A stretch of DNA of 64,000 nucleotides from a virus (IMGVR_UViG_3300027976_000007:32001-96000), one strand, 5' to 3'. Positions 4,890 to 20,802 are shown, numbered from the stretch's first letter. The notes: a model not told the origin generated them from the sequence alone. A program made the numbers and translations.

Positions 4890-5624
4890 TTAAAAATTAT
4901 TATCACTTTTTCTTACAATAAAATACTCACTCTCTACTCCATCAACTATAAATTCTAATTTCATTAGGCCTTTATTACTTATAAAAAGCTTACCTCCATT
5001 TGGGTTTTTATTAACATGGAGAATAGTTCTAAAAATTTCTGAATTAAAAGGGAGCCTAATGTTTAGTTCTTTAATTTTCCCTGTAACGGAATATGAAATT
5101 TTGTTATTATGCCCTTCTTCATCCCCAAAAATAAATTCACATACGTTATCCCCAACCAATGAAGTAGTAGTATGTATTAACATATTGTCAACTTCCCCTA
5201 AAGCGGCTTTAGCTTTAGTAAGATTTAAAACATCCTTTTCTTCTAGATTTAATTCTACTTCCCATTCAGGAATGTTAACAGTCCCCACTTTAGATATAAG
5301 TAGAGGTTCGGCTAAAGCATAAGTAAGATTAAAATCTTGATCTGAAATATGGAGTTTAGTGAATTTAGATTGATGTTTTTCTAAATCCAAAGAAATATCT
5401 TGACTACATATAGATATCAAACCTGATAGTTTTTTAGTATCAAATATAGCTAACTTACTATCAATCAAATTGAAATTGGGGCATTTAACCTTACCAATAA
5501 CATCCCTTGTAGGGGTCATAAAGTCTATATTAAGAGAATTATTCTTAATTTCCCACATTACAGATTCATTTATCTTTAAATAATACTTATCTATTATAGA
5601 AGAAAGTAGAGATTTATTTATCAT
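4890..5624 (-). CDS. putative sliding clamp (T4 gp45-like)
   Basis: 244 aa, beta-rich, C-terminal ISNKGLMKLEF...EYFI; next to PolB and clamp loader. Confidence 0.7.
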   Translation of the reverse strand: MINKSLLSSIIDKYYLKINESVMWEIKNNSLNIDFMTPTRDVIGKVKCPNFNLIDSKLAIFDTKKLSGLISICSQDISLDLEKHQSKFTKLHISDQDFNLTYALAEPLLISKVGTVNIPEWEVELNLEEKDVLNLTKAKAALGEVDNMLIHTTTSLVGDNVCEFIFGDEEGHNNKISYSVTGKIKELNIRLPFNSEIFRTILHVNKNPNGGKLFISNKGLMKLEFIVDGVESEYFIVRKSDNNF

Positions 5625-5639
5625 ATCTTATATTATATT

Positions 5640-5671
5640 TAAATATAACATCTTATTTTACGTAAACCAAA
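5640..5671 (-). promoter_or_regulatory. promoter TTTG-N20-TATATTTA
   Basis: Minus strand TTTG GTTTACGTAAAATAAGATGT TATATTTA. Confidence 0.65.
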
Positions 5672-5672
5672 C

Positions 5673-6602
5673 TTAAAAATTAAAAAATATATCTATATGT
5701 TCGTTAGTATTAAAAACCCATTCTAGGTCACTATATAAACCTTCAAGTTTATTTAATAATATAGATTCAAATATTTTCTTTCTATTTACGTATGTTTCTA
5801 TAAATGTTAAAATTTCAGGGGATATATCATAATCCAAAAAAGCTATAGCCTCTATATGGTAAGGATTAGATTTTAAATAAACCCATTTTACTTTATCCCC
5901 AGGGGAAATAGTTTTGTGTTTTTTATTTAAATCCCAGAAATTTAATAAATCATTATGTCGGGCTACTGCTCTTACGGCGGCGGGCGTTCTTTTTTTTAAT
6001 TTAGATAGAATTTCTCCTTTTTTAGGTTTTGAATCTAAGTATTTAGTGAGTGTTTTTACTGAAGTTGGATTACCTAATTTGTTAATAGATATCTCCCCAT
6101 CTAATATTTGGTTTTTATATTTTTTAATTCTCTTATCTATTTCATTTTGAGATTGGCCTTTTAATATATCGATTAAGGCTTCTCTAAAGAACTTACCAAA
6201 ATCTGGAGGGAAATTTGCTTTTTTAAATTCTAAACCTTTTATATCTAATTCATCAACATCTATCCCTTCCTTTTTAGTAATCCATTGAGCATATCTTCTA
6301 GTAGATCTAAAGTAAGCGGATCGAATTACAGCTTCCGTTTTCATCTCTAATCTATGTTCTTCAACATTAAAACATTCCCGGGTTAAAGAATTATAAGATT
6401 CATTTATTATATCTTGATACTCAAGAGCTATTTTCTCTAAACGTTTATCTTTATCCTTTTCATCTAAGTTATCAAAATCAGGGTATAAATATCTTAGGAG
6501 GGGTTCTGCATGTACATAAATTGAGTCAGTGTCTGAGTAGATTACATAATTTTTTAAACTTGAAGGGCAAATAAATTCAGGGATTTCTTGTAAATGTTTC
6601 AT
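5673..6602 (-). CDS. family B DNA polymerase, C-terminal part (motif C and thumb)
   Basis: YSDTDSIY (motif C), RRYA, IKGLE motifs. Confidence 0.92.
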   Translation of the reverse strand: MKHLQEIPEFICPSSLKNYVIYSDTDSIYVHAEPLLRYLYPDFDNLDEKDKDKRLEKIALEYQDIINESYNSLTRECFNVEEHRLEMKTEAVIRSAYFRSTRRYAQWITKKEGIDVDELDIKGLEFKKANFPPDFGKFFREALIDILKGQSQNEIDKRIKKYKNQILDGEISINKLGNPTSVKTLTKYLDSKPKKGEILSKLKKRTPAAVRAVARHNDLLNFWDLNKKHKTISPGDKVKWVYLKSNPYHIEAIAFLDYDISPEILTFIETYVNRKKIFESILLNKLEGLYSDLEWVFNTNEHIDIFFNF

Positions 6603-10981: not shown

Positions 10982-11527
10982 TTACATCACCGCATATCTT
11001 AATAATCCTCCTCTGAATCCTGTCTGTAGGTATTCCTCAGGATTACTTAGTACCTTTTCTAACATATCACGAATCATTTGTTTTTCCTGTTCATAGGTAA
11101 GTGGGGGTGTATCTATGTATTGTGTGATAGAGGGTGACCATGTTAGAGTAATACTCTTCGAAGGTTCATATGTTTTTGGGTTATAAGTAATAGGTGAAAT
11201 TACACACCCATCTTTAACTGGAGTGTGGATATCTAATGGTGAATACATTTTTGGGGTAAACGATATGGTGTAAACATATCCTACTTTATTTTTGTAGGTT
11301 GGGTTTTCTGAATCTGATAGAATTGTTTCGTCAGCAACCAATAAGGTAATACCATCCTCCAATAATACCGAAGGGGCAGACATCCAAATGATTTTTTCAA
11401 ACTCAAAATGATTAATGAGTTCGGTTTCTGCTAGAATACGTTGTTCTTCCGTTAAGTTGTGAATACCCATTACCTCATAAGGTTCATTAAGTATGGATAA
11501 TAATTTTTGAGTTATACTTACTTTCAT
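10982..11527 (-). CDS. hypothetical protein, paralog of 16236..16781
   Basis: 181 aa; shares FTPKMY, PVKDGC, SITLTWSP, QMIRDMLEKVL.NPEEY with 16236..16781. Confidence 0.8.
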   Translation of the reverse strand: MKVSITQKLLSILNEPYEVMGIHNLTEEQRILAETELINHFEFEKIIWMSAPSVLLEDGITLLVADETILSDSENPTYKNKVGYVYTISFTPKMYSPLDIHTPVKDGCVISPITYNPKTYEPSKSITLTWSPSITQYIDTPPLTYEQEKQMIRDMLEKVLSNPEEYLQTGFRGGLLRYAVM

Positions 11528-11779: not shown

Positions 11780-12739
11780 TCAAACCTCTCTCATCTCATC
11801 GAATGCAATTATATGTGGGCGAGGTGAGAATTTATATCCTCTATCCTTACACATATTCATTACAGGACCATAACTTTCAATTAATTGTTCTCTAGTAGCT
11901 CCGGCGGGCATCATCCATGTCTTAGACTTAACCATATTATGAATTCCTTCAAGATCAAACCTAACATAAGAATTAATATATTTGGGGGATGATAAGAGGC
12001 CGGTAGATAACCTTTCTAAAAAATCTTCAACTTCTCCCATTATCGTGAGGTCCTTATCAATTACGGGCTTTATATGGTAATCGTGATGGTAGTTGATAGA
12101 ATCGATTATATTCGCGTAATTTAGACGGAACTTATTATGTTGTTTAACCATCCTTTCATCTACTATAGCCCCCAATGGAGTTTTTTCTCCTTTTATAGGT
12201 ATAGAATTAGAAAATTTAGGACTAATAGATAATAAGTTTATAGGGTGATCTGTTTCTAGGAAATGAGACCCTTCAGTTTCCATAGTTATAAATATTTTGT
12301 TTTGGTAAGCAAAATGAGTAAGTTCATTTACTAAGGAAGGATGCATTGAAGGTGAACCTCCAGTTAACATCATCTCTTTTATATGAGGGTTAGATTTATA
12401 CATATCAATTATTGATTGAAAATTATGCGTACCCTTTTCTGGGTGGATAGAGGTATACCAGCTATCGCACCATCCACCTTCCCCAAAAAAACATCTGTGG
12501 GTGCATCCAGTGGTTCTGATTACTATGGTAGGATAACCTGCTCTAGACCCTTCTGACTGGATTGCTGTGTAAACTTCTAAGATAGGTAAAACCTTATCAT
12601 AATCTTCTATACGGTCTAATTTTTTATGTTCCATAATTTTTCTGATATTTTCTTCTGGGATTTCAATTTTCTTCATATATCCCTGAATTTTTGCTGTTTT
12701 CGAATACTTCCACTTTAATAGCTTTACATCTATTAGCAT
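11780..12739 (-). CDS. queE: 7-carboxy-7-deazaguanine synthase (radical SAM); real start probably near 12676
   Basis: IQSEG, RTTGCTHRC...WCDS, LTGGSP, ETEG, ISPK motifs; next to queD. Confidence 0.9.
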   Translation of the reverse strand: MLIDVKLLKWKYSKTAKIQGYMKKIEIPEENIRKIMEHKKLDRIEDYDKVLPILEVYTAIQSEGSRAGYPTIVIRTTGCTHRCFFGEGGWCDSWYTSIHPEKGTHNFQSIIDMYKSNPHIKEMMLTGGSPSMHPSLVNELTHFAYQNKIFITMETEGSHFLETDHPINLLSISPKFSNSIPIKGEKTPLGAIVDERMVKQHNKFRLNYANIIDSINYHHDYHIKPVIDKDLTIMGEVEDFLERLSTGLLSSPKYINSYVRFDLEGIHNMVKSKTWMMPAGATREQLIESYGPVMNMCKDRGYKFSPRPHIIAFDEMREV

Positions 12740-13142
12740 CTATTTTTGAAAAAACATCATTGAATTTTTCTAATATAAATTTAGCTAAATATTCGGCACC
12801 CATCTTTTCCATAAAATGCACTTTACATATTCCTTCCATAGCCATAGTTTCGAATAAATCCCTATAAGGATCATCTTTTTCAACTAGTAAAGTATGGTCC
12901 AATAAACCATCTAACCAATTTTTTAAACCATTACCTTCAGGTTGAGCCTTAAATGAACCAAAATCAACTATCCAATTCATAGAGTCAAGCTGTTTATCTA
13001 TTTCAGGTTCATTAGAAGCAAACCAAACCTTCACCTCAAAGGAGTACCCATGAAGCAATTGACAATGTGAATGTTTGGCCTTCCATTGTCTTATAGCTAT
13101 TGAAAAATTATCGAATTTCTTAGTTGAAATATATCTTGGCAT
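12663..13142 (-). CDS. queD: 6-carboxy-5,6,7,8-tetrahydropterin synthase
   Basis: HCQLLHGY, VDFG, LDHTLL, AEYLA, EVFEN motifs. Confidence 0.88.
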   Translation of the reverse strand: MPRYISTKKFDNFSIAIRQWKAKHSHCQLLHGYSFEVKVWFASNEPEIDKQLDSMNWIVDFGSFKAQPEGNGLKNWLDGLLDHTLLVEKDDPYRDLFETMAMEGICKVHFMEKMGAEYLAKFILEKFNDVFSKIDANRCKAIKVEVFENSKNSGIYEEN

Positions 13143-13160
13143 TTGTTTTGTTTTTAAATA

Positions 13161-13346
13161 TTAATATGTTATAGTGAAAGGATTATAAGGATTAGTAGGA
13201 GGATTATAAGGGATATTATAAGGATAAAAGAGATTTATCCTACTAGATTCGATTTCAGCTTTCAACAATATAACAGCCTCTTGAGGTGTTATAGAGTTTT
13301 GTTTAAGTAGTTTTTCTACTATGGAAGTTATTGTATCATTATTCAT
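13161..13346 (-). CDS. small hypothetical protein
   Basis: 61-aa ORF overlapping the upstream stop. Confidence 0.6.
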   Translation of the reverse strand: MNNDTITSIVEKLLKQNSITPQEAVILLKAEIESSRINLFYPYNIPYNPPTNPYNPFTITY

Positions 13347-14196
13347 TGTTGTAAAAATTTAATACATTGTTTTTGATAACATTACTTATATAAAATCCTT
13401 TATCTACTAACTTTGTTGATCTAGCTTTATTAGCACTAGGTAACGCCTTTAATTGTAATAATGTTAAATGGGATTCATCAATAAATAAATTTGGTTTGGA
13501 TTTTTTGAAATAATCTGTTAAATAAAAATCTCCTAATTTTTCCCCTAAAAGTGCAATCACATCAGTATTGTAATATTCACTATCTGAAGGTAACAACATA
13601 TTAATGGTATGATCTATATGATTTTCTAATCGTTCAGCTTCTTCCAATCTACCTTCCCTATTAAAATCTCTAACTTGTTTAACCATCTCTTCATTCAATC
13701 TCCTGATGATGAAACTTTTATGTTCAGTAATTAACTCTGGCAATTGTTTTTCAAAAGTTGGAAATAAAATAGTACTGGAGCATATTAAAATAGCTTTATC
13801 GGAATAATCTAAGAAATCTTTAACTGCGTAACGTAAATCCTTATTTTCTTGATTAACAACTACTGTACCTCCTACTTTCTTATTAAGAATGTTGTGAAAA
13901 TATGGTGGTATATAAATATCATAGTTAGATACATAATATCCAACAAAGTTATCGGGGAACATTGCTACTAATTCATTATATAGCTGATATGCTAATACCT
14001 TATTAGGTGCTAAAACACTCGCGGGTTTATTTTCTCTATCGATAACATTCCCTAATACAAATGTTTTTCCTGAACCTGTTATTCCTTTTAAAGTTTGTTG
14101 TTTGTACTTACCAATTCCATCTAATAAACCATCAATTGAATTATATTGATCTTTAGTAGGAGTGAAATCGGATTTTAAATTAAATCCATTTTGCAT
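13339..14196 (-). CDS. uvrB: UvrB-like helicase, N-terminal half (last 4 residues YNNE probably from thioredoxin)
   Basis: PTKDQ, LKGITGSGKTF, APNKVLAYQLYNEL, YYVSNYD, FIDESHLTLLQL, LVDKGF match UvrB motifs I-II. Confidence 0.85.
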   Translation of the reverse strand: MQNGFNLKSDFTPTKDQYNSIDGLLDGIGKYKQQTLKGITGSGKTFVLGNVIDRENKPASVLAPNKVLAYQLYNELVAMFPDNFVGYYVSNYDIYIPPYFHNILNKKVGGTVVVNQENKDLRYAVKDFLDYSDKAILICSSTILFPTFEKQLPELITEHKSFIIRRLNEEMVKQVRDFNREGRLEEAERLENHIDHTINMLLPSDSEYYNTDVIALLGEKLGDFYLTDYFKKSKPNLFIDESHLTLLQLKALPSANKARSTKLVDKGFYISNVIKNNVLNFYNNE

Positions 14197-14237
14197 AACT
14201 CTTATTTTTAAATTAACGTGGCTTCCTTACCAACACG

Positions 14238-14269
14238 TAAAGATACGAAAGATAGCTCGGGTATCCAAA
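14238..14269 (-). promoter_or_regulatory. promoter TTTG-N20-TATCTTTA (cassette subtype, spacer ends TTCG)
   Basis: TTTG GATACCCGAGCTATCTTTCG TATCTTTA upstream of uvrB-N. Confidence 0.7.
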
Positions 14270-14419
14270 TTTTTATACCATTATAGTTTAAGTAGGCAAC
14301 TCTATTTACCTTTATTTAATTTATATAGTTCATTGTATATACCTGCAAGCAGGATATAAAGGGGTAAAAATATAACCCATAGGTCTAGTGGAGTCATAAT
14401 ATTAATTTATTTAGTTTAA

Positions 14420-14974
14420 TTATTTTAACGAGCTTCTGTATCTGTAATGTAAACACTGAATATCACCCCCGCATAAGGTTCCGTAGGTAACAAATTGTTT
14501 ACCATCAACTATAGCATTTACTTCAGCACCATCATTCCCCTTTCTAATTACGATATCACTTGCAATCATGTCATTGGTTAAGTGTTTTGCTAAAGCACGT
14601 TGTAACTTAAACATATTTACTGATATAAAGGTCTCCATATATTTTTCCTCCCAATTAGGACGTAACTGGTTCTCTAAGGTAGATATGTAATATGTTAAAT
14701 TGCCATTGTTTCTAATTGCCTTATATGCATCCTTTTCGATATATTGTTCAGGTAAGTCATAACTGGTACCACTCCAAGTCCTATGTTCGGTCATATAAAC
14801 AAACCTCTTTATACCTGTATACTGACATGCAACGCCATATCTTATTACTTCCCCATTCTCCTTAACCCATTCCTGGTGCTTAGTAAAATCAGCTTTCATG
14901 TCATTGACCTGCTTGGTAGCTAAATCTGTAACAATAACTTTAGCCTCTTCTGAAATTTTATCTAATGCGTTCAT
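14420..14974 (-). CDS. hypothetical protein
   Basis: 184-aa ORF with C-terminal GGDIQCLHYRY; AAAATAAAGGTT-ATG leader. Confidence 0.75.
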   Translation of the reverse strand: MNALDKISEEAKVIVTDLATKQVNDMKADFTKHQEWVKENGEVIRYGVACQYTGIKRFVYMTEHRTWSGTSYDLPEQYIEKDAYKAIRNNGNLTYYISTLENQLRPNWEEKYMETFISVNMFKLQRALAKHLTNDMIASDIVIRKGNDGAEVNAIVDGKQFVTYGTLCGGDIQCLHYRYRSSLK

Positions 14975-14979
14975 AACCT

Positions 14980-15198
14980 TTATTTTACAACACCAATTAC
15001 TCTATATTTCTCACTGTATCTTGTTTTGGTACAATCCCATACCATAACCTTACATTCAACTTTTTTCCCAAAATATTCTCTAACATCGGTAAATTTATCT
15101 TCATTAATTAGTATCGAATCACCTATTTCTACATCTAGGAAATAGAATATACACTCCATAAACTCCTCCATTATTACTCTTCCAAATATAGTCTCCAT
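14980..15198 (-). CDS. hypothetical protein
   Basis: 72 aa, directly downstream of the promoter at 15247. Confidence 0.7.
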   Translation of the reverse strand: METIFGRVIMEEFMECIFYFLDVEIGDSILINEDKFTDVREYFGKKVECKVMVWDCTKTRYSEKYRVIGVVK

Positions 15199-15246
15199 AA
15201 CCTTTATTTTTAATTATAATATGGGCTTCTTGCCCTTATTTATGCG

Positions 15247-15278
15247 TAAATATACGAAAGCTTTTTCGGGTATCCAAG
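15247..15278 (-). promoter_or_regulatory. promoter CTTG-N20-TATATTTA (cassette subtype)
   Basis: CTTG GATACCCGAAAAAGCTTTCG TATATTTA. Confidence 0.7.
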
Positions 15279-15301
15279 CTTCCTGTGCATTACTGTTAAT
15301 C

Positions 15302-15844
15302 TCATTCAGATAAAAATTCACCAAATAATTGCATATATCTCCCTTCCTCTATCTCATTTTCAAAATATTTATTTGATGGTGTTTTAATAGAAAAATCATC
15401 TCCATCAATAGAGAATACTGCTTTTTTATAACCTTTTACATATAAATCGTATCTACCATCTCCTTTATCTATAAATTTATTATATTTAGGGTTTGATTTA
15501 TGGATTCCTTGTGCTTTTACATTTTTATAACCAAAAATCTTATCCATCAACATTTTCCAAGCATCACCATGTGGTTTGGGATCACATCCAGCCGTTTCCG
15601 GTCCTAATTTAAAATAATGATGGTCATAAGCGTGACAAAGCTCATGTGCAATGGTATCTTTTTCCAATTCTGTATCCAATATAAAGGATGATAAACTGAT
15701 TAAATAATGATTTGGTCCTATATACTTACAATGTCCAAATTTAGATTTTGCCTTTGTAGATACTTCATATTTAATCTTAAGCTTCTCAACACCTAAATCA
15801 TTTGATATTTTAGTGTTTAAATTTTCTAATAATTTATTCTCCAT
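15302..15844 (-). CDS. SprT-like zinc metalloprotease
   Basis: HELCH (HExxH) plus PHGDAWK motif. Confidence 0.8.
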   Translation of the reverse strand: MENKLLENLNTKISNDLGVEKLKIKYEVSTKAKSKFGHCKYIGPNHYLISLSSFILDTELEKDTIAHELCHAYDHHYFKLGPETAGCDPKPHGDAWKMLMDKIFGYKNVKAQGIHKSNPKYNKFIDKGDGRYDLYVKGYKKAVFSIDGDDFSIKTPSNKYFENEIEEGRYMQLFGEFLSE

Positions 15845-15903
15845 CTTGATTTATATAAACTATGTTAATAAGTGTGCTACTTCCCAGACTTTTTTCAATT
15901 TTC

Positions 15904-16179
15904 TTATTTTGAAATTTCATCTACATCTACATTAATGTGTATTCCTAACTCCTTTAATTGTTCCGGTGATAATGGTTTTACGAGTGAGGGTTGATGTTGT
16001 TTAGGATATTCTCTTTTTAGTGGATCTTTCTTAAAGAAAAATCCTGTTATATCCGCATATCGAAGAAGTTCTTTATCTCCCTCTATAATGGTATTTCCTG
16101 ATTTTGCTTTAAGCATTACAATCTTAAATCCTAATTTATTTGTAAGCCATTTGATAAATAGTAAAGATAATCTTTCCAT
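15904..16179 (-). CDS. hypothetical protein
   Basis: 91 aa, AAAAATAAAAGTT-ATG leader. Confidence 0.7.
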   Translation of the reverse strand: MERLSLLFIKWLTNKLGFKIVMLKAKSGNTIIEGDKELLRYADITGFFFKKDPLKREYPKQHQPSLVKPLSPEQLKELGIHINVDVDEISK

Positions 16180-16235
16180 AACTTTTATTTTTAAAATTTA
16201 TAATTTTTATATGTTAGTTTATTAATCTTATATCA

Positions 16236-16781
16236 TTATACAGCTGCAAATCTTACTATGCATCCTGTATGTTCAACTGGTCTATACTCTTCAGGATTAT
16301 CCAATACTTTTTCTAACATATCACGAATCATTTGTTTATCATCTTCATATGTTCTTTGTGGAGCCTCAATATCTTGAGGAAAGTCAGGTGACCAAGTTAG
16401 AGTAATACTTTGTTTAGGTTTATATGTTTCTGGATTGTAAGTGGTGGGGGCAAATACACATCCATCTTTTACTGGGGTATATATTGTATCCGACTCATAC
16501 ATTTTTGGAGTAAACATTAAAGTATAGATGTATCCTACTTTATGTTTATAAGTTGGGTTATCTGTATCTGATATTTTTATTGATTTTATAACAATTGGGG
16601 TTGATTTATCTTCTGTTAGTCCACCCTGAGATTTCATCCAAACAATTTTATCGAATTCAAAGTGTTTAATAAGTTCTGCCTCTACTTGTATGAGTTGTTC
16701 TTCGGTTAAGTTGTTAATACTCAAGGCGTCCATAGAGTAACCGCAAATATCTACTAGTTTTTCTGTTAAATTTGATTTCAT
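16236..16781 (-). CDS. hypothetical protein, paralog of 10982..11527
   Basis: 181 aa, collinear with 10982..11527. Confidence 0.8.
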   Translation of the reverse strand: MKSNLTEKLVDICGYSMDALSINNLTEEQLIQVEAELIKHFEFDKIVWMKSQGGLTEDKSTPIVIKSIKISDTDNPTYKHKVGYIYTLMFTPKMYESDTIYTPVKDGCVFAPTTYNPETYKPKQSITLTWSPDFPQDIEAPQRTYEDDKQMIRDMLEKVLDNPEEYRPVEHTGCIVRFAAV

Positions 16782-16854
16782 GATTTCATGATTTCATGAT
16801 TTTATTATTTTTATTATTTTTATTATTTTTATTATTTTTATTATTTTTATTATT
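16773..16854. repeat. tandem repeats (TGATTTCA)x3 and (TTTATTATT)x6 at the start and in the leader of 16236..16781
   Basis: Read directly: 16773-16796 and 16801-16854. Confidence 0.95.
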
Positions 16855-16867
16855 TTAAAATATACTA

Positions 16868-16899
16868 TAAATGTACGAAAGATAATCCGAGTAACCAAA
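16868..16899 (-). promoter_or_regulatory. promoter TTTG-N20-TACATTTA (cassette subtype)
   Basis: TTTG GTTACTCGGATTATCTTTCG TACATTTA. Confidence 0.7.
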
Positions 16900-16906
16900 C
16901 CTCCCT

Positions 16907-16996
16907 TGTAGATACCTCGTATTTAATCTTAAGTTTCTCAACACCTAAATCATCTGAGATTTTAGTGTTTAATTTTTCCAGTAATATATTTTTCAT
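16907..16996 (-). pseudogene. truncated second copy of the SprT-like gene 5' end (30 codons)
   Basis: MKNILLEKLNTKISDDLGVEKLKIKYEVST versus MENKLLENLNTKISNDLGVEKLKIKYEVST. Confidence 0.85.
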
Positions 16997-17010
16997 TTTC
17001 TTTTATTTAC

Positions 17011-17235
17011 TTAATCCCTAATAATAAATTCATCACCTACAATACAATCTCCATTATCAATAAAATGTAAAATTTTATTTTTCAAACCATCACTTTTATT
17101 ATCACATTCTATAATCTCTTTAGTTAATAAATTCTGAACAACACAACTTTCAACATAACTAGAATGTGTACAATTAAAATGTCCCTTTACTTCTTCTATT
17201 ACATTTTTTACTTCTAATACTTTAAATCTTTCCAT
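17011..17235 (-). CDS. hypothetical protein
   Basis: 74 aa, downstream of the promoter at 17285. Confidence 0.7.
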   Translation of the reverse strand: MERFKVLEVKNVIEEVKGHFNCTHSSYVESCVVQNLLTKEIIECDNKSDGLKNKILHFIDNGDCIVGDEFIIRD

Positions 17236-17284
17236 AACTTTTATTTTTTAATTATCAATTGGGCTTCTAACCCCTCTTACCCTA

Positions 17285-17316
17285 TGAAGATACGAACCCT
17301 ATTTGAGGTAGTCAAG
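17285..17316 (-). promoter_or_regulatory. promoter CTTG-N20-TATCTTCA (cassette subtype)
   Basis: CTTG ACTACCTCAAATAGGGTTCG TATCTTCA; flanks resemble those of the 15247 copy. Confidence 0.6.
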
Positions 17317-17395
17317 CTTCCGGTGTATTACTGTTAGATTTTATCAAACAAAAATTCACTAAATAGTTACCCACTTCAATAAAAAATACTAATTT

Positions 17396-18037
17396 TTAAA
17401 TACTACCTATTAAACTTAATTGTTTTTCCCTCCTATATTCAATCTCTTCAATTGCTCCCTCTAATGAAGATGATATATGATTACAACACATAAAAACTTC
17501 TCCATTTGTATTTCTAGCAGCTCTACCTGATACTTGAATTAAACATGATTTAGTACGTAGAAAATTATTTCTACTAGCTTGCTCAACAATAACTAAGGAA
17601 CATTGTTTTACATCAATCCCCTCACGTAACATATTAATACCAATAATAACATTAATTTTACCACTACGTAAATCTCTTAAAATCTCTTTACGTTTATTTT
17701 GTTTTATTTTGAAATGTATAACTTCACTATCAATATTATTGTATGAGAGTAAAATATGAATATCATTAACTGATCTTCTAGATATACAGTTTATAAAAAC
17801 AGTTTCACCTTTTTTTACTATATTTTTAATATCATTAATCATAACATTACTTCCAAAATAATCCCCCTCCTTAAGAGTTAATTTAGGATCTACTATATTA
17901 TTAGGACGGGTTAATAATTCCGAAATATATTCACTATTTTCTAATTCAAATTTTGATGGAGTAGCGGACATATAAGTTATTGTGTTTACTCTATCTTTTA
18001 AATCATCAAAATTTAATATTTGTTCTTTATTTAACAT
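17396..18037 (-). CDS. uvrB: UvrB-like helicase, C-terminal half (in frame with upstream thioredoxin)
   Basis: YMSATP, LTRP..IVDP, GINMLREGID, FLRT..LIQVSGRAARN..G, YRREKQ are UvrB motifs III-VI. Confidence 0.88.
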   Translation of the reverse strand: MLNKEQILNFDDLKDRVNTITYMSATPSKFELENSEYISELLTRPNNIVDPKLTLKEGDYFGSNVMINDIKNIVKKGETVFINCISRRSVNDIHILLSYNNIDSEVIHFKIKQNKRKEILRDLRSGKINVIIGINMLREGIDVKQCSLVIVEQASRNNFLRTKSCLIQVSGRAARNTNGEVFMCCNHISSSLEGAIEEIEYRREKQLSLIGSI

Positions 18038-18240
18038 TCCTATAGTTCTTTGAATTTCTACTCCATCTTTTAATAGGATTAAACATGGAATATTTTTAAC
18101 GTGATATTTTACACGTAATTGACTTTCTAGATCTACATCTACTCTTGTAAATGATATTTGATTGGAAAGAGAATCCCTGATGGGGCTTAAGGTTTTGCAT
18201 GGTAAACACCAATCTGACGTAAAGTATAATATTTTTTCAT
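18008..18240 (-). pseudogene. thioredoxin (WCLPC): one A short after the start codon, 3' end displaced by the cassette
   Basis: Adding one A to the run at 18232-18237 gives MKKILYFTSDWCLPCKTLSP...KNIPCLILLKDGVEIQRTIGMLNKEQILNF. Confidence 0.82.
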
Positions 18241-18246
18241 TATATT

Positions 18247-18278
18247 TTAATATAATTAATATAAGGTATTAAGCCAAT
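18247..18278 (-). promoter_or_regulatory. promoter ATTG-N20-TATATTAA
   Basis: Upstream of the thioredoxin ATG. Confidence 0.55.
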
Positions 18279-18334
18279 TTATCTTTTAAAAGCTCGTGAA
18301 GATATTTCTTTTTCTTTATCGTTTTCCATAATTT

Positions 18335-18943
18335 TCAATTACTTAGTTTCAGTTTTATGTTTGGATGGTTTTCATATCCGTTTAGGTAAAAATCGCTTAT
18401 TTCTAGGTTATTAATAAATTCAACTCCTTTTCTATCTGGGTTCCAGAATTCATCATTTATAACAAGTGTTGGTAAATCGTATGGTTCCCTAGTTAATTGT
18501 TCTTTAAGTCCATCTTTATGATTGTTATAGATATGAGTATCTCCTAAACTGCCAACCAACATATCAGGGACCATATTAACTTCTTTTGCAATTATTGATA
18601 ATAATAAACCATATGAAGCTATGTTATAGGGTAAACCCAACCCAACATCAACTGATCTTTGATTCCATATTAAGGAGATTGCTCTTGTTGGGACACGGTT
18701 AGCTCTCATATCGTCTTCTTCATTCTCTAAACCAGCTTCTAAATGTTCTAAAATGACATTGTTTTGTAGGCACCAATTTCTTCGCTCACCCATAGACAAT
18801 TTTCTTGTATAAACTTGAAATCCATAATGGCATGGTGGTAATACTTGCTTACCTTCAGTTATATTTTTTAATCCATACCTTTTGTTAAATTTAATATTAC
18901 ATTTTAATTCTTTTAAGAATGCTTCTTTATTTAAAGGCTTCAT
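18335..18943 (-). CDS. thyA: thymidylate synthase, C-terminal part
   Basis: LPPCH, NQRSVDVGLGLPYNIASY, GDTHIYNNH. Confidence 0.93.
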   Translation of the reverse strand: MKPLNKEAFLKELKCNIKFNKRYGLKNITEGKQVLPPCHYGFQVYTRKLSMGERRNWCLQNNVILEHLEAGLENEEDDMRANRVPTRAISLIWNQRSVDVGLGLPYNIASYGLLLSIIAKEVNMVPDMLVGSLGDTHIYNNHKDGLKEQLTREPYDLPTLVINDEFWNPDRKGVEFINNLEISDFYLNGYENHPNIKLKLSN

Positions 18944-18963
18944 ATATTTTATATTTTTAAAAT

Positions 18964-19596
18964 TTATTGCTTTTTTGATTGGGTAAAATCTTTTAAATAT
19001 ATTTGATAAAGTTCATCAGATGTTCTATTATCTGTTACGGGTAAATCCGCGGGGTTCCATGCCGATACTAACATCCTACGAGAATCTGGATTGGTTCTTA
19101 GTTCGTGTATTATGTCGGAGATCTGATCTATTGAATCCTTTATTGTAAGGGAATACGCTTTATTTTGAATGGCAGGATGGTTTGTGTCAAAACGTATATT
19201 CCAATTCCTCCATTGTTTACCATATATGGGACCTAGTTCCCCCCACTTCTTTGCGAATTCGATATTAGTTTTTATCTCATGTATAAATTCTTTTCTAGTA
19301 AGTGGTTTACCATCCTTTAGATAATTAGAGAAGCAATCCCCCACCCAAATATTATTCCCATTCTCCACCAAGTATTTAATGTTCGTGTCACCTCTCAAAA
19401 ACCAAATAAGTTCTGATACAATGTTCTCAAAATTGATTTCCTTTGTTGTAAGTATAGGAAATCCATCTTTCATGTTATGTGTTATATGCATACCAAATAT
19501 GCTGGAAGTTCCGGTCCCCGTCCTATCTGATTTATCGTAACCATTCAATAGAATATGTTCTACTAAATCTAGATATTGTTTGTCTAGTTTATTCAA
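18964..19596 (-). CDS. thyA: thymidylate synthase, N-terminal part
   Basis: DRTGTGT, FPILTTK, ELIWFLRG, LGPIYGKQWR, NPDSRR..VSAWN. Confidence 0.93.
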   Translation of the reverse strand: MNKLDKQYLDLVEHILLNGYDKSDRTGTGTSSIFGMHITHNMKDGFPILTTKEINFENIVSELIWFLRGDTNIKYLVENGNNIWVGDCFSNYLKDGKPLTRKEFIHEIKTNIEFAKKWGELGPIYGKQWRNWNIRFDTNHPAIQNKAYSLTIKDSIDQISDIIHELRTNPDSRRMLVSAWNPADLPVTDNRTSDELYQIYLKDFTQSKKQ

Positions 19597-19925
19597 AATC
19601 CTTTAAAAATTTCAGGTTCATTTTTCATCTTTTTATCAAACTCCTTTCTAATCTTTTCATTCCAAGGTCTATTTATACGAGTTAACTCATTTGCTACTAA
19701 TAGCAAGTTATGTTCAGTCCAATAACCACTATTTAAGCCCCTCGCATAATAGAACCCATCAACATCCATTACAAACTCACAAAGGGTTTTTCTGTTTTCA
19801 TAAACCACCTCATAAGTATGAAGATTTATAGGTTTTAGAGATAGATCTGATTTTTTAGTTGGAGATGGTGAAGGAACAGAACCTTTTAGAGGGTCATTAG
19901 AAGGTTTGATGTTAATCTTACTCAT
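19593..19925 (-). CDS. hypothetical protein
   Basis: 110 aa, overlaps both neighbours. Confidence 0.7.
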   Translation of the reverse strand: MSKINIKPSNDPLKGSVPSPSPTKKSDLSLKPINLHTYEVVYENRKTLCEFVMDVDGFYYARGLNSGYWTEHNLLLVANELTRINRPWNEKIRKEFDKKMKNEPEIFKGF

Positions 19926-20802
19926 ATATTTTTTTAAACATTTTAAAAGTTTTTTCTTGAAGGTGGTTCTTAAGAACTTCCATCACATGGTTCTTTGCAG
20001 TTTCCCATTTAACCGGTCCATTTTGGTCGGCATAAAGTGTTGGGTCTTTTTTATCTAATTTTATAAAAGCTTCAATCCTCTCGACACTAGAAGCGGATTT
20101 ATAGTCACTATAAACTTTCCCTTCTATTGTTATTGGTTTATAAGAGGTTATAGTTCTTTTATAAATTTCTTTGAATTTTAAACCTAATTCTTCACATAAC
20201 CTAACACCATCCTTTAAGATATCTATTTTCATCCCTTCAAGATAAGGGGTAAAATATTTTACGTTTTCCCAATTCCAATTTCCTAATCTGAAAGCTTTTT
20301 GGTCTGCATCTCTGAATTCAGGTCTACAGTCTGGGTATATATTAAAATCTCCAGCATGGATCCCCATTGCTATATCACAACATTCTTCCGTTTCATTAGC
20401 TATGGATAAAGCTATAGATTGTATTATAGATGAGAATAATTTATTTCGGTTAGGAACAACAGTTTCTTTCATGTTAGACTGTTCATAATGACCTTCTGGT
20501 ACTTCTGTTCCTCCTTCTATTAACCCACTAACCAAAAGTTCGGATAGGCCTTTTAATTCTATTACACGATGTTTAGTTTGAGGATAGTTGATTGTTACTT
20601 TTGAAGGTGTAATAAAACTCCTATGAGGATTCAAATTTAAATATTCTACTAGTTCCCTAGCTTTATTTAATTCCTCTTTATGTTTTTGACCATAGTCAAA
20701 TGAAACACAAACTATATTTTCATATTCATTTAAACATCTAAGTAACAAGGTGCTAGAATCCATCCCTCCGGAGAGTGAAAGTACTACATTTTTCTTTTTC
20801 AT
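19918..20802 (-). CDS. queC: 7-cyano-7-deazaguanine synthase
   Basis: SGGMDS, FDYGQKH, VPNRN, YPDCRPEF. Confidence 0.95.
   Translation of the reverse strand: MKKKNVVLSLSGGMDSSTLLLRCLNEYENIVCVSFDYGQKHKEELNKARELVEYLNLNPHRSFITPSKVTINYPQTKHRVIELKGLSELLVSGLIEGGTEVPEGHYEQSNMKETVVPNRNKLFSSIIQSIALSIANETEECCDIAMGIHAGDFNIYPDCRPEFRDADQKAFRLGNWNWENVKYFTPYLEGMKIDILKDGVRLCEELGLKFKEIYKRTITSYKPITIEGKVYSDYKSASSVERIEAFIKLDKKDPTLYADQNGPVKWETAKNHVMEVLKNHLQEKTFKMFKKIYE

Follow-up and report, generated by a model that had tools for sequence, protein, structure and literature searches.

Phage genomes are mosaics, yet the DNA intermediates through which they exchange genes can seldom be observed. The closest described systems are the PeSL cassettes of T4-type phages, in which variable regions consist of small ORFan units, each preceded by a repeated element that contains a promoter (Arbiol et al. 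2010, PMC2839356; Comeau et al. 2014, PMC4122927). PeSL mini-circles of one to several units form in these phages without a dedicated recombinase (PMC2839356); their formation has been shown, whereas their role as vehicles of horizontal transfer has only been proposed. Integron gene cassettes are promoter-associated small-gene arrays that travel in circular form and are inserted through one crossover, with an IntI tyrosine recombinase and attI/attC sites. In the Campbell-type integration of temperate phages and integrative elements, one reciprocal crossover between a circle and a linear target leaves the core as a direct repeat at both ends (attL/attR).

Here we describe a locus in a 64,000-nucleotide stretch of viral DNA (IMGVR_UViG_3300027976_000007:32001-96000; hereafter the window) in which a uvrB gene is circularly permuted and a thioredoxin gene (trx) is split, with the same 11-bp core at both break points (Table 1).

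Table 1. Features of the insert and its flanks, by position in the window
Feature	Position	Strand	Description
trx 5' part	18008..18268	minus	through F87, motif WCLPC; Pfam Thioredoxin E=1.5e-13
Left junction core TATTAAATTTT	18008..18018	minus	boundary trx 5' part / uvrB C part
uvrB C part	17396..18007	minus	residues 282-484 of joined protein and stop; motif III (SAT), Helicase_C, UvrB domain
Promoter/leader element copy 1	17236..17345	minus	before g74; nhmmer E=2e-28
g74, ORFan, 74 aa	17011..17235	minus	96% aa identity to gene directly after intact uvrB in L005; no Pfam/PHROG match
Scar	16903..17024	minus	last ~18 nt of a uvrB gene and first ~100 nt of SprT-like gene
Promoter core copy 2	16868..16899	minus	before g181; repeat family D3
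Two short tandem arrays	16773..16859	minus	8-mer x4.8, 9-mer x6.3; before g181
g181, ORFan	16236..16781	minus	paralogue at 10982-11527 (repeat families D1, D7, D9)
g91, ORFan	15904..16179	minus	cassette-type leader in front
SprT-like metalloprotease gene	15302..15844	minus	HExxH, complete; Pfam SprT-like E=2e-12
Promoter/leader element copy 3	15199..15303	minus	before g72
g72, ORFan	14980..15198	minus	no Pfam or PHROG match
g184, ORFan	14420..14974	minus	85% nt / 80% aa identity to L006 6337-6912; no family match
Promoter/leader element copy 4	14197..14294	minus	before uvrB
uvrB N part	13354..14196	minus	residues 1-281; Walker A GSGKT, beta-hairpin region, motif II DESH
Right junction core TATTAAATTTT	13354-13364	minus	boundary uvrB N part / trx tail
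trx tail	13339..13353	minus	YNNE and stop, final four trx codons, fused to uvrB N part
g61	13161..13346	minus	small resident ORF overlapping trx stop
queD (PTPS)	12663..13142	minus	Pfam PTPS; resident gene, usual downstream neighbour of trx in relatives

Junctions and their authenticity

On the minus strand, the C part of uvrB lies upstream and the N part about 3.2 kb downstream. The ORF at 17396-18268(-) matches Pfam Thioredoxin and then Helicase_C and the UvrB domain, so that the trx 5' part is in frame with 203 C-terminal UvrB residues. The ORF at 13339-14196(-) encodes the ResIII/DEAD N-terminal half of UvrB (Pfam; 281 residues) and ends in NNVLNF followed by YNNE and the stop codon; the final 11 nt of the uvrB part are the right junction core. 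These positions, the frames, the order of the halves, and the 11-mer at both break points are as a first-pass annotation of the window had given them, and the patchy similarity that it saw upstream of the cores is likewise present, the 30 nt there being more alike than 99% of random window pairs. The 11-mer itself is common in this AT-rich window (five copies against 1.6 expected); the feature above chance is the reciprocity of the junctions.

Both junctions are bridged without a mismatch by Logan contigs of three runs (X1-X3, three samples), in which the depths inside and outside the insert are equal (37/37, 70/73, and 62/64). Five more contigs, from five samples, match across the left junction at 99.9-100% identity. 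The arrangement is fixed: it recurs, identical, in independent assemblies from at least five samples, which answers the concern of the first-pass annotation that the contig might be misassembled. The permuted uvrB, the split trx, and the shared core are thus confirmed as real. No empty site, free circle, or excised form occurs in the assembled contigs of X1-X3, and such contigs drop rare variants. A joint of 18007 to 13354 in a salt-lake run, considered as an excision circle, was rejected, as its 13 mismatches in 354 nt identify it as a relative's intact uvrB.

The split uvrB gene

The N half ends and the C half starts at the same three residues, LNF, of full UvrB (tblastn). In silico, the joined halves encode a protein of 484 aa whose junction, ...KNNVLNFDDLKDRVNTITY..., is exactly that of intact relatives, and the continuous, in-frame uvrB predicted from a crossover at the cores is thereby borne out. 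The joined protein is collinear with these relatives, with no residue gained or lost and no indel; they carry ...NNVLNFDDLKDRVNTITY... exactly. The intact mini-UvrB relatives form 13 protein clusters, all of 479-496 aa, and uvrB is single and intact in all of them. The split occurs in this phage only, and a stable Trx-UvrB(C) fusion among relatives, which the first-pass annotation had named as the contrary outcome, is not the case.

The N part is 98.9% identical in nucleotides to L006, which belongs to a group of IMG/VR contigs, L005-L009. The first ~55 nt of the C part are also L006-like, and the remainder is 97-100% identical to L005. The L006-type haplotype runs unbroken from the N part through the core into these ~55 nt (9/10 informative sites) and changes to the L005 type at positions 1001-1016 of the joined uvrB. 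Because an unbroken L006-type tract spans the split and is followed by L005-type sequence, the two halves were formerly one gene that was already mosaic.

The joined protein aligns to residues 4-181 and 237-574 of bacterial UvrB (PDB 9gy7, 2fdc, and 1d9z; E=5e-83). The joined or relative protein shares with bacterial UvrB the Walker A motif, the beta-hairpin region, DESH, SAT, the helicase C domain, and domains 1a/1b/3; helicase motifs I, II, and III and the beta-hairpin are divided over two ORFs in the window. By alignment to solved UvrB structures, the cut falls between motifs II and III, within the first RecA-like domain. Bacterial UvrB has domain 2 (UvrA binding), whereas mini-UvrB is without about 55-95 residues between UvrB positions 181 and 237; bacterial UvrB also has a C-terminal UVR (UvrC-binding) domain, whereas the mini-UvrB alignment stops at residue 574 of 661. 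Accordingly, PF02151 (UVR) was found in the cellular hits and in none of the mini-UvrB clusters P0002-P0014. Unlike bacterial UvrB, the relatives pair mini-uvrB with a SprT-like gene (one contig with UvdE).

The thioredoxin target

The Pfam Thioredoxin match covers residues 11-87 of the fusion ORF and profile positions 20-100 of 103, and the last four Trx residues are displaced by 4.65 kb. The rebuilt trx would end in ILNFYNNE and stop; relatives end in NFYNN, SFYNG, or NFING, and the length also fits the family. The frame is open from 18268, without an in-frame ATG, GTG, or TTG. The ancestral ATG remains at 18240, one base off this frame (A6 run, 18232-18237), and reading from it yields a peptide of 17 aa; the Trx of relatives starts with MKKILYF or MKQLFYF. 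With its in-frame start gone, trx would stay broken even after excision, so that the intact thioredoxin proposed by the first-pass annotation holds for the tail and fails at the start.

Among related phages, 22 loci have an uninterrupted trx immediately upstream of queD (≤92 nt). Together with the intact mini-uvrB of the 13 clusters, this is the picture that the first-pass annotation had expected in relatives, and it does not point to an element-encoded integrase with a recurrent target site (uvrB intact in 13/13 clusters, trx uninterrupted in 22/22 loci). Indeed, no integrase, rep, or other recombinase gene was detected by Pfam or PHROGs in the insert or the flanking ORFs, as already noted at first pass. 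Exact-junction scans for a sister phage without the insert were negative, and a close Trx homologue was also not found; the pre-insertion state is therefore reconstructed from relatives with 30-48% identical Trx.

Gene content and source of the insert

The insert is 85-99% identical in nucleotides to L005/L006, whereas the backbone genes are only 45-65% identical to those phages in amino acids. The insert is thus foreign to this genome, a horizontal transfer, and it is a mosaic of four promoter-led units; both points had been missed at first pass. Its gene order uvrB ... SprT ... g184 is collinear with linear L006, so that a closure between g184 and the uvrB promoter explains the permutation. 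The closure point presumably lies between promoter/leader copy 4 and the g184 stop; the 200 nt between g184 and uvrB position -13 have no match among the compared sequences. A donor with exactly this gene order was not found.

In L006, uvrB is followed by a SprT gene with 92% nucleotide identity to the SprT-like gene of the insert, and the uvrB-SprT pair is conserved in relatives. The g184 homologue of L006 lies 2.2 kb downstream of that pair. The scar sits inside a 43-aa ORF (16865-16996), has 86% identity to L006 4139-4258, a tract covering both the uvrB stop and the SprT start, and forms a direct repeat of 15751-15857 (family D4). A 90% allele of g181 exists in an unrelated co-occurring phage. 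Several assemblies terminate at the tandem arrays.

The leader ATAA[AG][AG]GTTATG occurs five times in the 142-kb genome, always within the insert, and the four copies of the promoter core are similarly restricted to it in this genome; the core is common at gene starts in L005-L009. Promoter/leader copy 1 is 92% identical to the element preceding a 141-aa gene of L005. A sigma-70 promoter scan was not above chance. By eye, the promoter, TTTG-N20-TAnnTTTA, is similar to the Bacteroidota sigma-A consensus TAnnTTTG (PMC9723704). A scan of the coding strand in 13000-18500 found no terminator-like site, and by eye only 4-bp hairpins are seen downstream of the -7 box. Each relative has a different set of genes next to uvrB, and resemblance to the window sets in at -13 to -17 from the uvrB ATG.

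Proposed origin

We consider it likely that the locus is a fixed scar, and not a switch, left when a 4,654-bp circle (or looped template) integrated at microhomology. The source would have been a phage of a different lineage, from the L005-L009 group, with mini-uvrB and the SprT-like gene as a DNA-repair module in a variable region of promoter-led units. The 4,654-bp stretch from uvrB to g184 would have been joined end to end, in a free circle or in the equivalent form of a replicating template that was looped or in tandem, and the exchange would have taken place in a cell co-infected with the ancestor of the present phage. One crossover between TATTAAATTTT in mid-uvrB and the same 11-mer four codons before the trx end, possibly helped by the ~30 nt of patchy similarity upstream, would amount to a Campbell-type integration without an integrase, presumably by the general recombination or replication machinery of the phages. 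This would account for the present layout, in which trx runs into the uvrB C part, and the uvrB N part, keeping its own promoter, ends in the trx tail. The trx start would also have been lost, by a 1-nt deletion in the A run. Most likely neither gene works any longer, and the arrangement is passed on stably; because both uvrB pieces are still open frames, we infer loss of function from the position of the cut. Since the relatives' uvrB, the trx-queD order, the trx tail, the haplotype, and the assemblies all agree, the snapshot of gene shuffling through circular intermediates suggested at first pass is the best reading, its circle being the inferred part.

Alternative explanations

The same product could have arisen without a free circle, which we regard as unlikely, by template switching or by a double crossover with a tandemly duplicated donor segment. 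In the former case, copy-choice or microhomology-mediated break-induced replication would have passed from trx to the donor uvrB, through a loop between two promoter elements, and back. Such a route is topologically equivalent and therefore fits all junction evidence equally well; the four near-repeats of the promoter element are possible switch points, and the homeology beside the 11-mer would steer both switches to one place. However, it requires three coordinated switches or a tandem donor, where 13 of 13 relatives have a single intact uvrB, and mini-circles are documented in another phage group.

There is a slight chance that the unit is still active, with infrequent looping-out at the 11-bp repeats releasing a 4,654-bp circle that carries a whole promoter-driven mini-uvrB and six other genes, and that such circles are the normal currency of recombinase-free gene-unit exchange among unrelated Bacteroidota phages. 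If so, the locus would be a natural, assayable donor/recipient pair for circle exchange.

It is very improbable that the arrangement is new and selected, the Trx-UvrB(C) fusion and the separate UvrB(N) cooperating as a split helicase. Both reading frames are open, and what looks like a strong promoter, with its leader, still precedes the N part, but the insert is very recent (98-99% nucleotide identity to relatives), so that open frames carry no information. Moreover, the cut separates motifs II and III of a single RecA-like domain, no more than one phage has the arrangement, and the fusion frame has no start codon: judged by the start-codon context rules of PMC6847099, its sole ATG (18037) lacks an A-rich leader and carries G instead of A at -3.

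Even less credible is the reversible switch, or still-mobile element, offered at first pass, in which regulated or frequent excision via the 11-bp repeats restores uvrB on the circle and trx in the genome. The unit is indeed flanked by direct repeats, and after excision uvrB would again be whole, in frame, and driven by its promoter. Against it stand the identical arrangement in at least five samples, the contigs of X1-X3 with neither an empty-site nor a circle joint and with equal depth inside and outside, the mere 11 bp of identity available for excision, the lost trx start, the lack of a recombinase by Pfam or PHROGs, and the lack of a relative with the same arrangement. Finally, an assembly artefact is hardly conceivable: the record is a metagenome-assembled viral contig, and the nearby g181 region gives branch points and one possibly chimeric contig, but assemblers use words far longer than an 11-bp repeat, another assembler gave both junctions mismatch-free in three runs, and so did contigs of JGI, ENA, and Logan origin from five samples.

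Comparison with known systems

The proposed integration scar resembles PeSL cassettes in three respects. (i) A repeated composite motif precedes ORFan genes clustered in variable regions, with four promoter cores and five leaders in the 4.65-kb insert and the same style at gene starts in L005-L009. (ii) Exchange breaks lie close to the ATG, between -10 and the ATG in PeSL, where exchanges between elements explain the indels among relatives, and with similarity from -13 to -17 here. (iii) The insert holds four units, in the permuted order that an integrated circle would leave. In contrast, PeSL exchange is element-to-element homologous recombination, whereas here an 11-bp microhomology crossover would have occurred inside two coding sequences, so that, unlike in PeSL exchange, genes would be destroyed. 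The PeSL motif holds a strong, early, sigma-70-like promoter, whereas the present element, as judged by eye, may be of the Bacteroidota -33/-7 type. The PeSL stem-loop precedes the promoter and acts as a terminator, whereas here a short hairpin follows the promoter and the scan found no terminator. PeSL circles are seen to form in T4-type phages, whereas the present circle is deduced from sequence. Integrons share the promoter-associated small-gene arrays, but the insert has neither IntI nor attI/attC, and each unit has its own promoter. Campbell-type elements share the direct repeat of the core at both ends, but here there is no integrase, the "attP" lies in a helicase gene and the "attB" in trx, and the site is reused in no relative.

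The locus is a scar left by evolution rather than a new molecular machine. It preserves both reciprocal junctions, and relatives show the donor-type gene intact and the target in its usual unbroken order; together these form a natural record of a multi-gene unit that entered a foreign phage genome, circularly permuted, without an integrase and with 11 bp of identity. It also supplies exact primers and diagnostic SNPs for tests of circle formation. The mini-circle idea would thereby extend from T4-type phages to phages with Bacteroidota-type promoters, and such insertions would be able to land in genes and break them.

Phage and genomic setting

The genome record is linear, 142,110 bp long and by estimate 88% complete, with bases 32001 to 96000 forming the window. 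Genes for a tail sheath, a major head protein, DNA polymerase, ribonucleotide reductase and GroEL are encoded there, as is the 7-deazaguanine set queC, queD and queE, and every gene between 11 and 21 kb lies on the minus strand. The region has a single nucleotide-level match among phage records, which is short and falls on Flavobacterium myoviruses. The phage is thus an uncultured myovirus, with a Bacteroidota bacterium as its probable host.

Features of the interrupted locus (window positions)
Feature	Position	Strand	Description
Insert	13354-18007	-	4,654-bp unit between the trx 5' part and the trx tail
trx-uvrB C fusion frame	18268-17396	-	Pfam thioredoxin over residues 11-87 (profile 20-100 of 103) with the thioredoxin motif WCLPC, then Helicase_C and UvrB-domain segment, no stop between
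uvrB N half	14196-13339	-	ResIII/DEAD half of a UvrB-like helicase; C-terminus ...NNVLNF-YNNE-stop
Closure-point region	14210-14409		No match among the related loci compared
g181	16236-16781		ORFan of the insert
Tandem arrays	16773-16859	+	TGATTTCA x4.8 and TTTTATTAT x6.3 (units as read on the plus strand), short and adjoining, before g181
uvrB/SprT remnant	16903-17024		Conserved uvrB-stop/SprT-start junction, just past g74
Resident g181 paralogue	10982-11527		5.25 kb from g181
Thymidylate synthase	18335-19596		Two ORFs in different frames; junction about 18944-18976

Probably a single mosaic uvrB, cut at a shared 11-mer

Reading frames, Pfam domains and abutment on UvrB confirm the observation of the first-pass annotation that a thioredoxin gene (trx) is split and a uvrB gene permuted around a common 11-mer, TATTAAATTTT, which is present at each of the two break points. 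With full-length UvrB as reference, similarity of the N half ends at F281 and that of the C half begins at L85-N86-F87 of the fusion frame; on the reference, the two matches overlap by exactly those three codons. The 11-mer by itself is unremarkable (5 copies in the window against 1.6 expected); the reported similarity upstream of the cores is borne out, the 30 nt 5' of the two copies being more alike than 99% of random window pairs. The junctions predicted for a crossover are CAAATATTAAATTTTTACAACAATGAA for the empty site (trx) and AACAATGTATTAAATTTTGATGAT for the circle (rebuilt uvrB).

Joining the halves in silico gives a 484-aa protein whose seam neither drops nor repeats a residue. The predicted whole uvrB junction exists in relatives, namely in intact 479-496-aa versions from five related IMG/VR contigs (L005-L009) and 13 protein clusters of a 5.8-billion-protein collection, in which the sequence spanning the break reads ...KNNVLNFDDLKDRVNTITY(I/M)SATP. 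Among these contigs and clusters the split form is confined to this phage, which speaks against a Trx-UvrB(C) fusion conserved in relatives.

The N part is 98.9% identical to L006 at the nucleotide level; for the C part, identity is 96-99% to L005 and only 74-94% to L006. An origin of the halves from two different uvrB genes was rejected, since the haplotype switch lies 54-69 nt past the split and not at it. In the numbering of the joined gene, the 11-mer occupies positions 937-947 (it is identical, and at the same place, in L006 and L007), and the L006-type haplotype passes through it into the C part, where a site-by-site comparison shows it at 9 of the 10 informative sites as far as position 1001; the switch to the L005 type falls between positions 1001 and 1016. 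The simplest reading of these sequences is that one already-recombinant uvrB was later cut at the 11-mer.

Against solved UvrB structures, the protein aligned over residues 4-181 and 237-574 and thus lacks UvrA-binding domain 2 and the C-terminal UVR domain. The break lies between helicase motifs II (DESH) and III (SAT), within the first RecA-like domain, a position which argues that the split inactivates the UvrB-like helicase. In relatives, a gene for an SprT-like metalloprotease nearly always lies next 3' of mini-uvrB, and one relative contig (sample ERZ4132402) has UvdE, a UV damage endonuclease, immediately 5' of the pair; mini-uvrB thus belongs to a small repair module. The combination of UvdE, mini-uvrB and SprT-like genes points to a repair module of three phage genes that would need neither UvrA nor UvrC.

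The target gene

In-silico removal of the insert yields a Trx ending in ...KEQILNFYNNE-stop; Trx proteins of related phages (n = 18; 81-97 aa) end in ...INFYNN, ...LSFYNG or ...LNFING. As anticipated, trx lies directly upstream of queD in relatives, ending at most 92 nt before it in 22 of the 78 loci recovered via queD, and in the window this distance is 4.65 kb greater. Excision had also been expected to leave an intact thioredoxin gene. Its C-terminus is indeed rebuilt as in relatives, but the start stays out of frame: the N-termini of relatives are MKKILYF or MKQLFYF, and in the window only six A follow the ATG where seven are required, so that reading from this ATG meets a stop after 17 codons, and no ATG, GTG or TTG is available in the Trx frame. 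All independent contigs agree on this A6 run, and the frameshift is therefore real.

The thymidylate synthase ORFs meet at TCA AAA AAG, a frame-break sequence on which five independent contigs agree; two related loci (L014 and L070) have a single frame across this point. Two A-run frame breaks therefore lie within 1.3 kb, reflecting either decay or frameshifting/slippage. The thyA gene of L014 is interrupted by about 935 nt (4937-5873 of that locus), between matches to residues 1-95 and 94-210; an intron or an inserted homing endonuclease could account for this.

A foreign, modular insert

Backbone genes common to this phage and L005-L009 have 45-65% protein identity, and the insert has 85-99% nucleotide identity. 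In L005-L009, uvrB has a DUF932-like gene on one side and an HD-domain module on the other; the interval between these two is only 1.2 kb long in this genome and has no uvrB. All five copies of the leader ATAA[AG][AG]GTTATG in the whole 142-kb genome fall in the insert, as do all four copies of a promoter-like core, TTTG-N20-TAnnTTTAC with a short hairpin after it, whose style also occurs 5' of genes in L005-L009. By eye, the putative core is similar to the sigma-A box TAnnTTTG of Bacteroidota (PMC9723704), followed by an A-rich leader without a Shine-Dalgarno sequence (PMC6847099). A computational scan for sigma-70 promoters gave nothing above chance. The confinement of leader and core to the insert, together with its high nucleotide identity to L005-L009, marks it as foreign and composed of four promoter-led units (ORFans being named by length in amino acids): g74 with a uvrB-3'/SprT-5' scar; g181, g91 and SprT; g72 and g184; and uvrB. 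Nearest relatives differ between its parts. In linear L006, uvrB ... SprT ... g184 come in the same order, and closure of that stretch between g184 and the uvrB promoter, with opening inside uvrB, gives exactly the observed gene order. Rfam had no match in 12500-20000, and g184 no usable match in the ESM Atlas.

The uvrB/SprT remnant is 86% identical to L006 and indicates that SprT and uvrB had already been parted by an earlier rearrangement when the unit came into this genome. Several assemblies end at the tandem arrays. Homologues of g181 in L043 and L093 identify it as a travelling ORFan; its resident paralogue is 71-82% identical in nucleotide blocks, and metagenomic contig depth over g181 is 2-3 times that of its flanks. 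One 66.7-kb contig (L089/L094; ERZ27247425 k141_1209922) is identical to this phage up to the g181 stop (compared with window 16183-16236) and continues as an unrelated co-occurring phage of the L093/L095 type (GH16, g181, LOG, sulfatase, poly(A) polymerase, HD, FKBP, Trx). Identity between the two alleles of g181 is only 90%. Genuine recombination at g181 may have produced this contig, or it may be chimeric through misassembly.

Origin and fixation of the arrangement

Two reciprocal junctions in direct order with one common core are what one crossover of a circle with its target characteristically produces. With the collinear L006 order and the whole gene in relatives, they leave the proposed integration of a circle well supported, the circle itself being what we infer from them. 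No integrase or rep gene was recognized among the ORFs examined, so the crossover is best ascribed to general machinery guided by microhomology: recombination or template switching of this kind, by phage or host enzymes during co-infection, would produce it. A looped-template copy-choice route in place of the circle would give an identical end product.

The alternative first-pass reading, a reversible switch, is not supported. Neither the empty-site joint nor the circle joint of this phage occurs in the contigs of three freshwater sequencing runs that contain it (X1-X3), contigs being blind to rare molecules, so that excision may occur at a low level. Within the insert, contigs have a depth equal to that outside it (37/37, 70/73 and 62/64), and the junctions are the same across samples, the left one with 99.9-100% identity in JGI, ENA and Logan contigs from five samples. 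The sole 18007->13354 joint, in a salt-lake run (X4), was rejected as an excision product; its contig has 13 mismatches in 354 nt, and in this run SprT also directly follows uvrB, which makes the joint part of an intact uvrB from a relative. The predicted trx-junction 27-mer does not occur in IMG/VR or in JGI metagenome contigs, and a 27-mer internal to trx likewise gave no match; a protein search with the Trx part gave no close homologue and a Trx-based locus search gave none. All these blanks are without weight either way. Misassembly was rejected, since the junctions recur in independent assemblies, both being bridged with no mismatches by Logan contigs, made by a different assembler, of X1-X3 (one possibly the source sample).

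Comparison with known systems

The nearest documented process is the generation of PeSL mini-circles in T4-type phages, in which one to several promoter-led ORFans circularize without a dedicated recombinase, and which have been proposed as vehicles of horizontal transfer (PMC2839356, PMC4122927). The present locus works like the PeSL model but is not a member: integration here was not element to element, the promoter type differs, and no terminator hairpin was found in a terminator scan that was itself uninformative. The locus records one well-documented event and does not amount to a new system.
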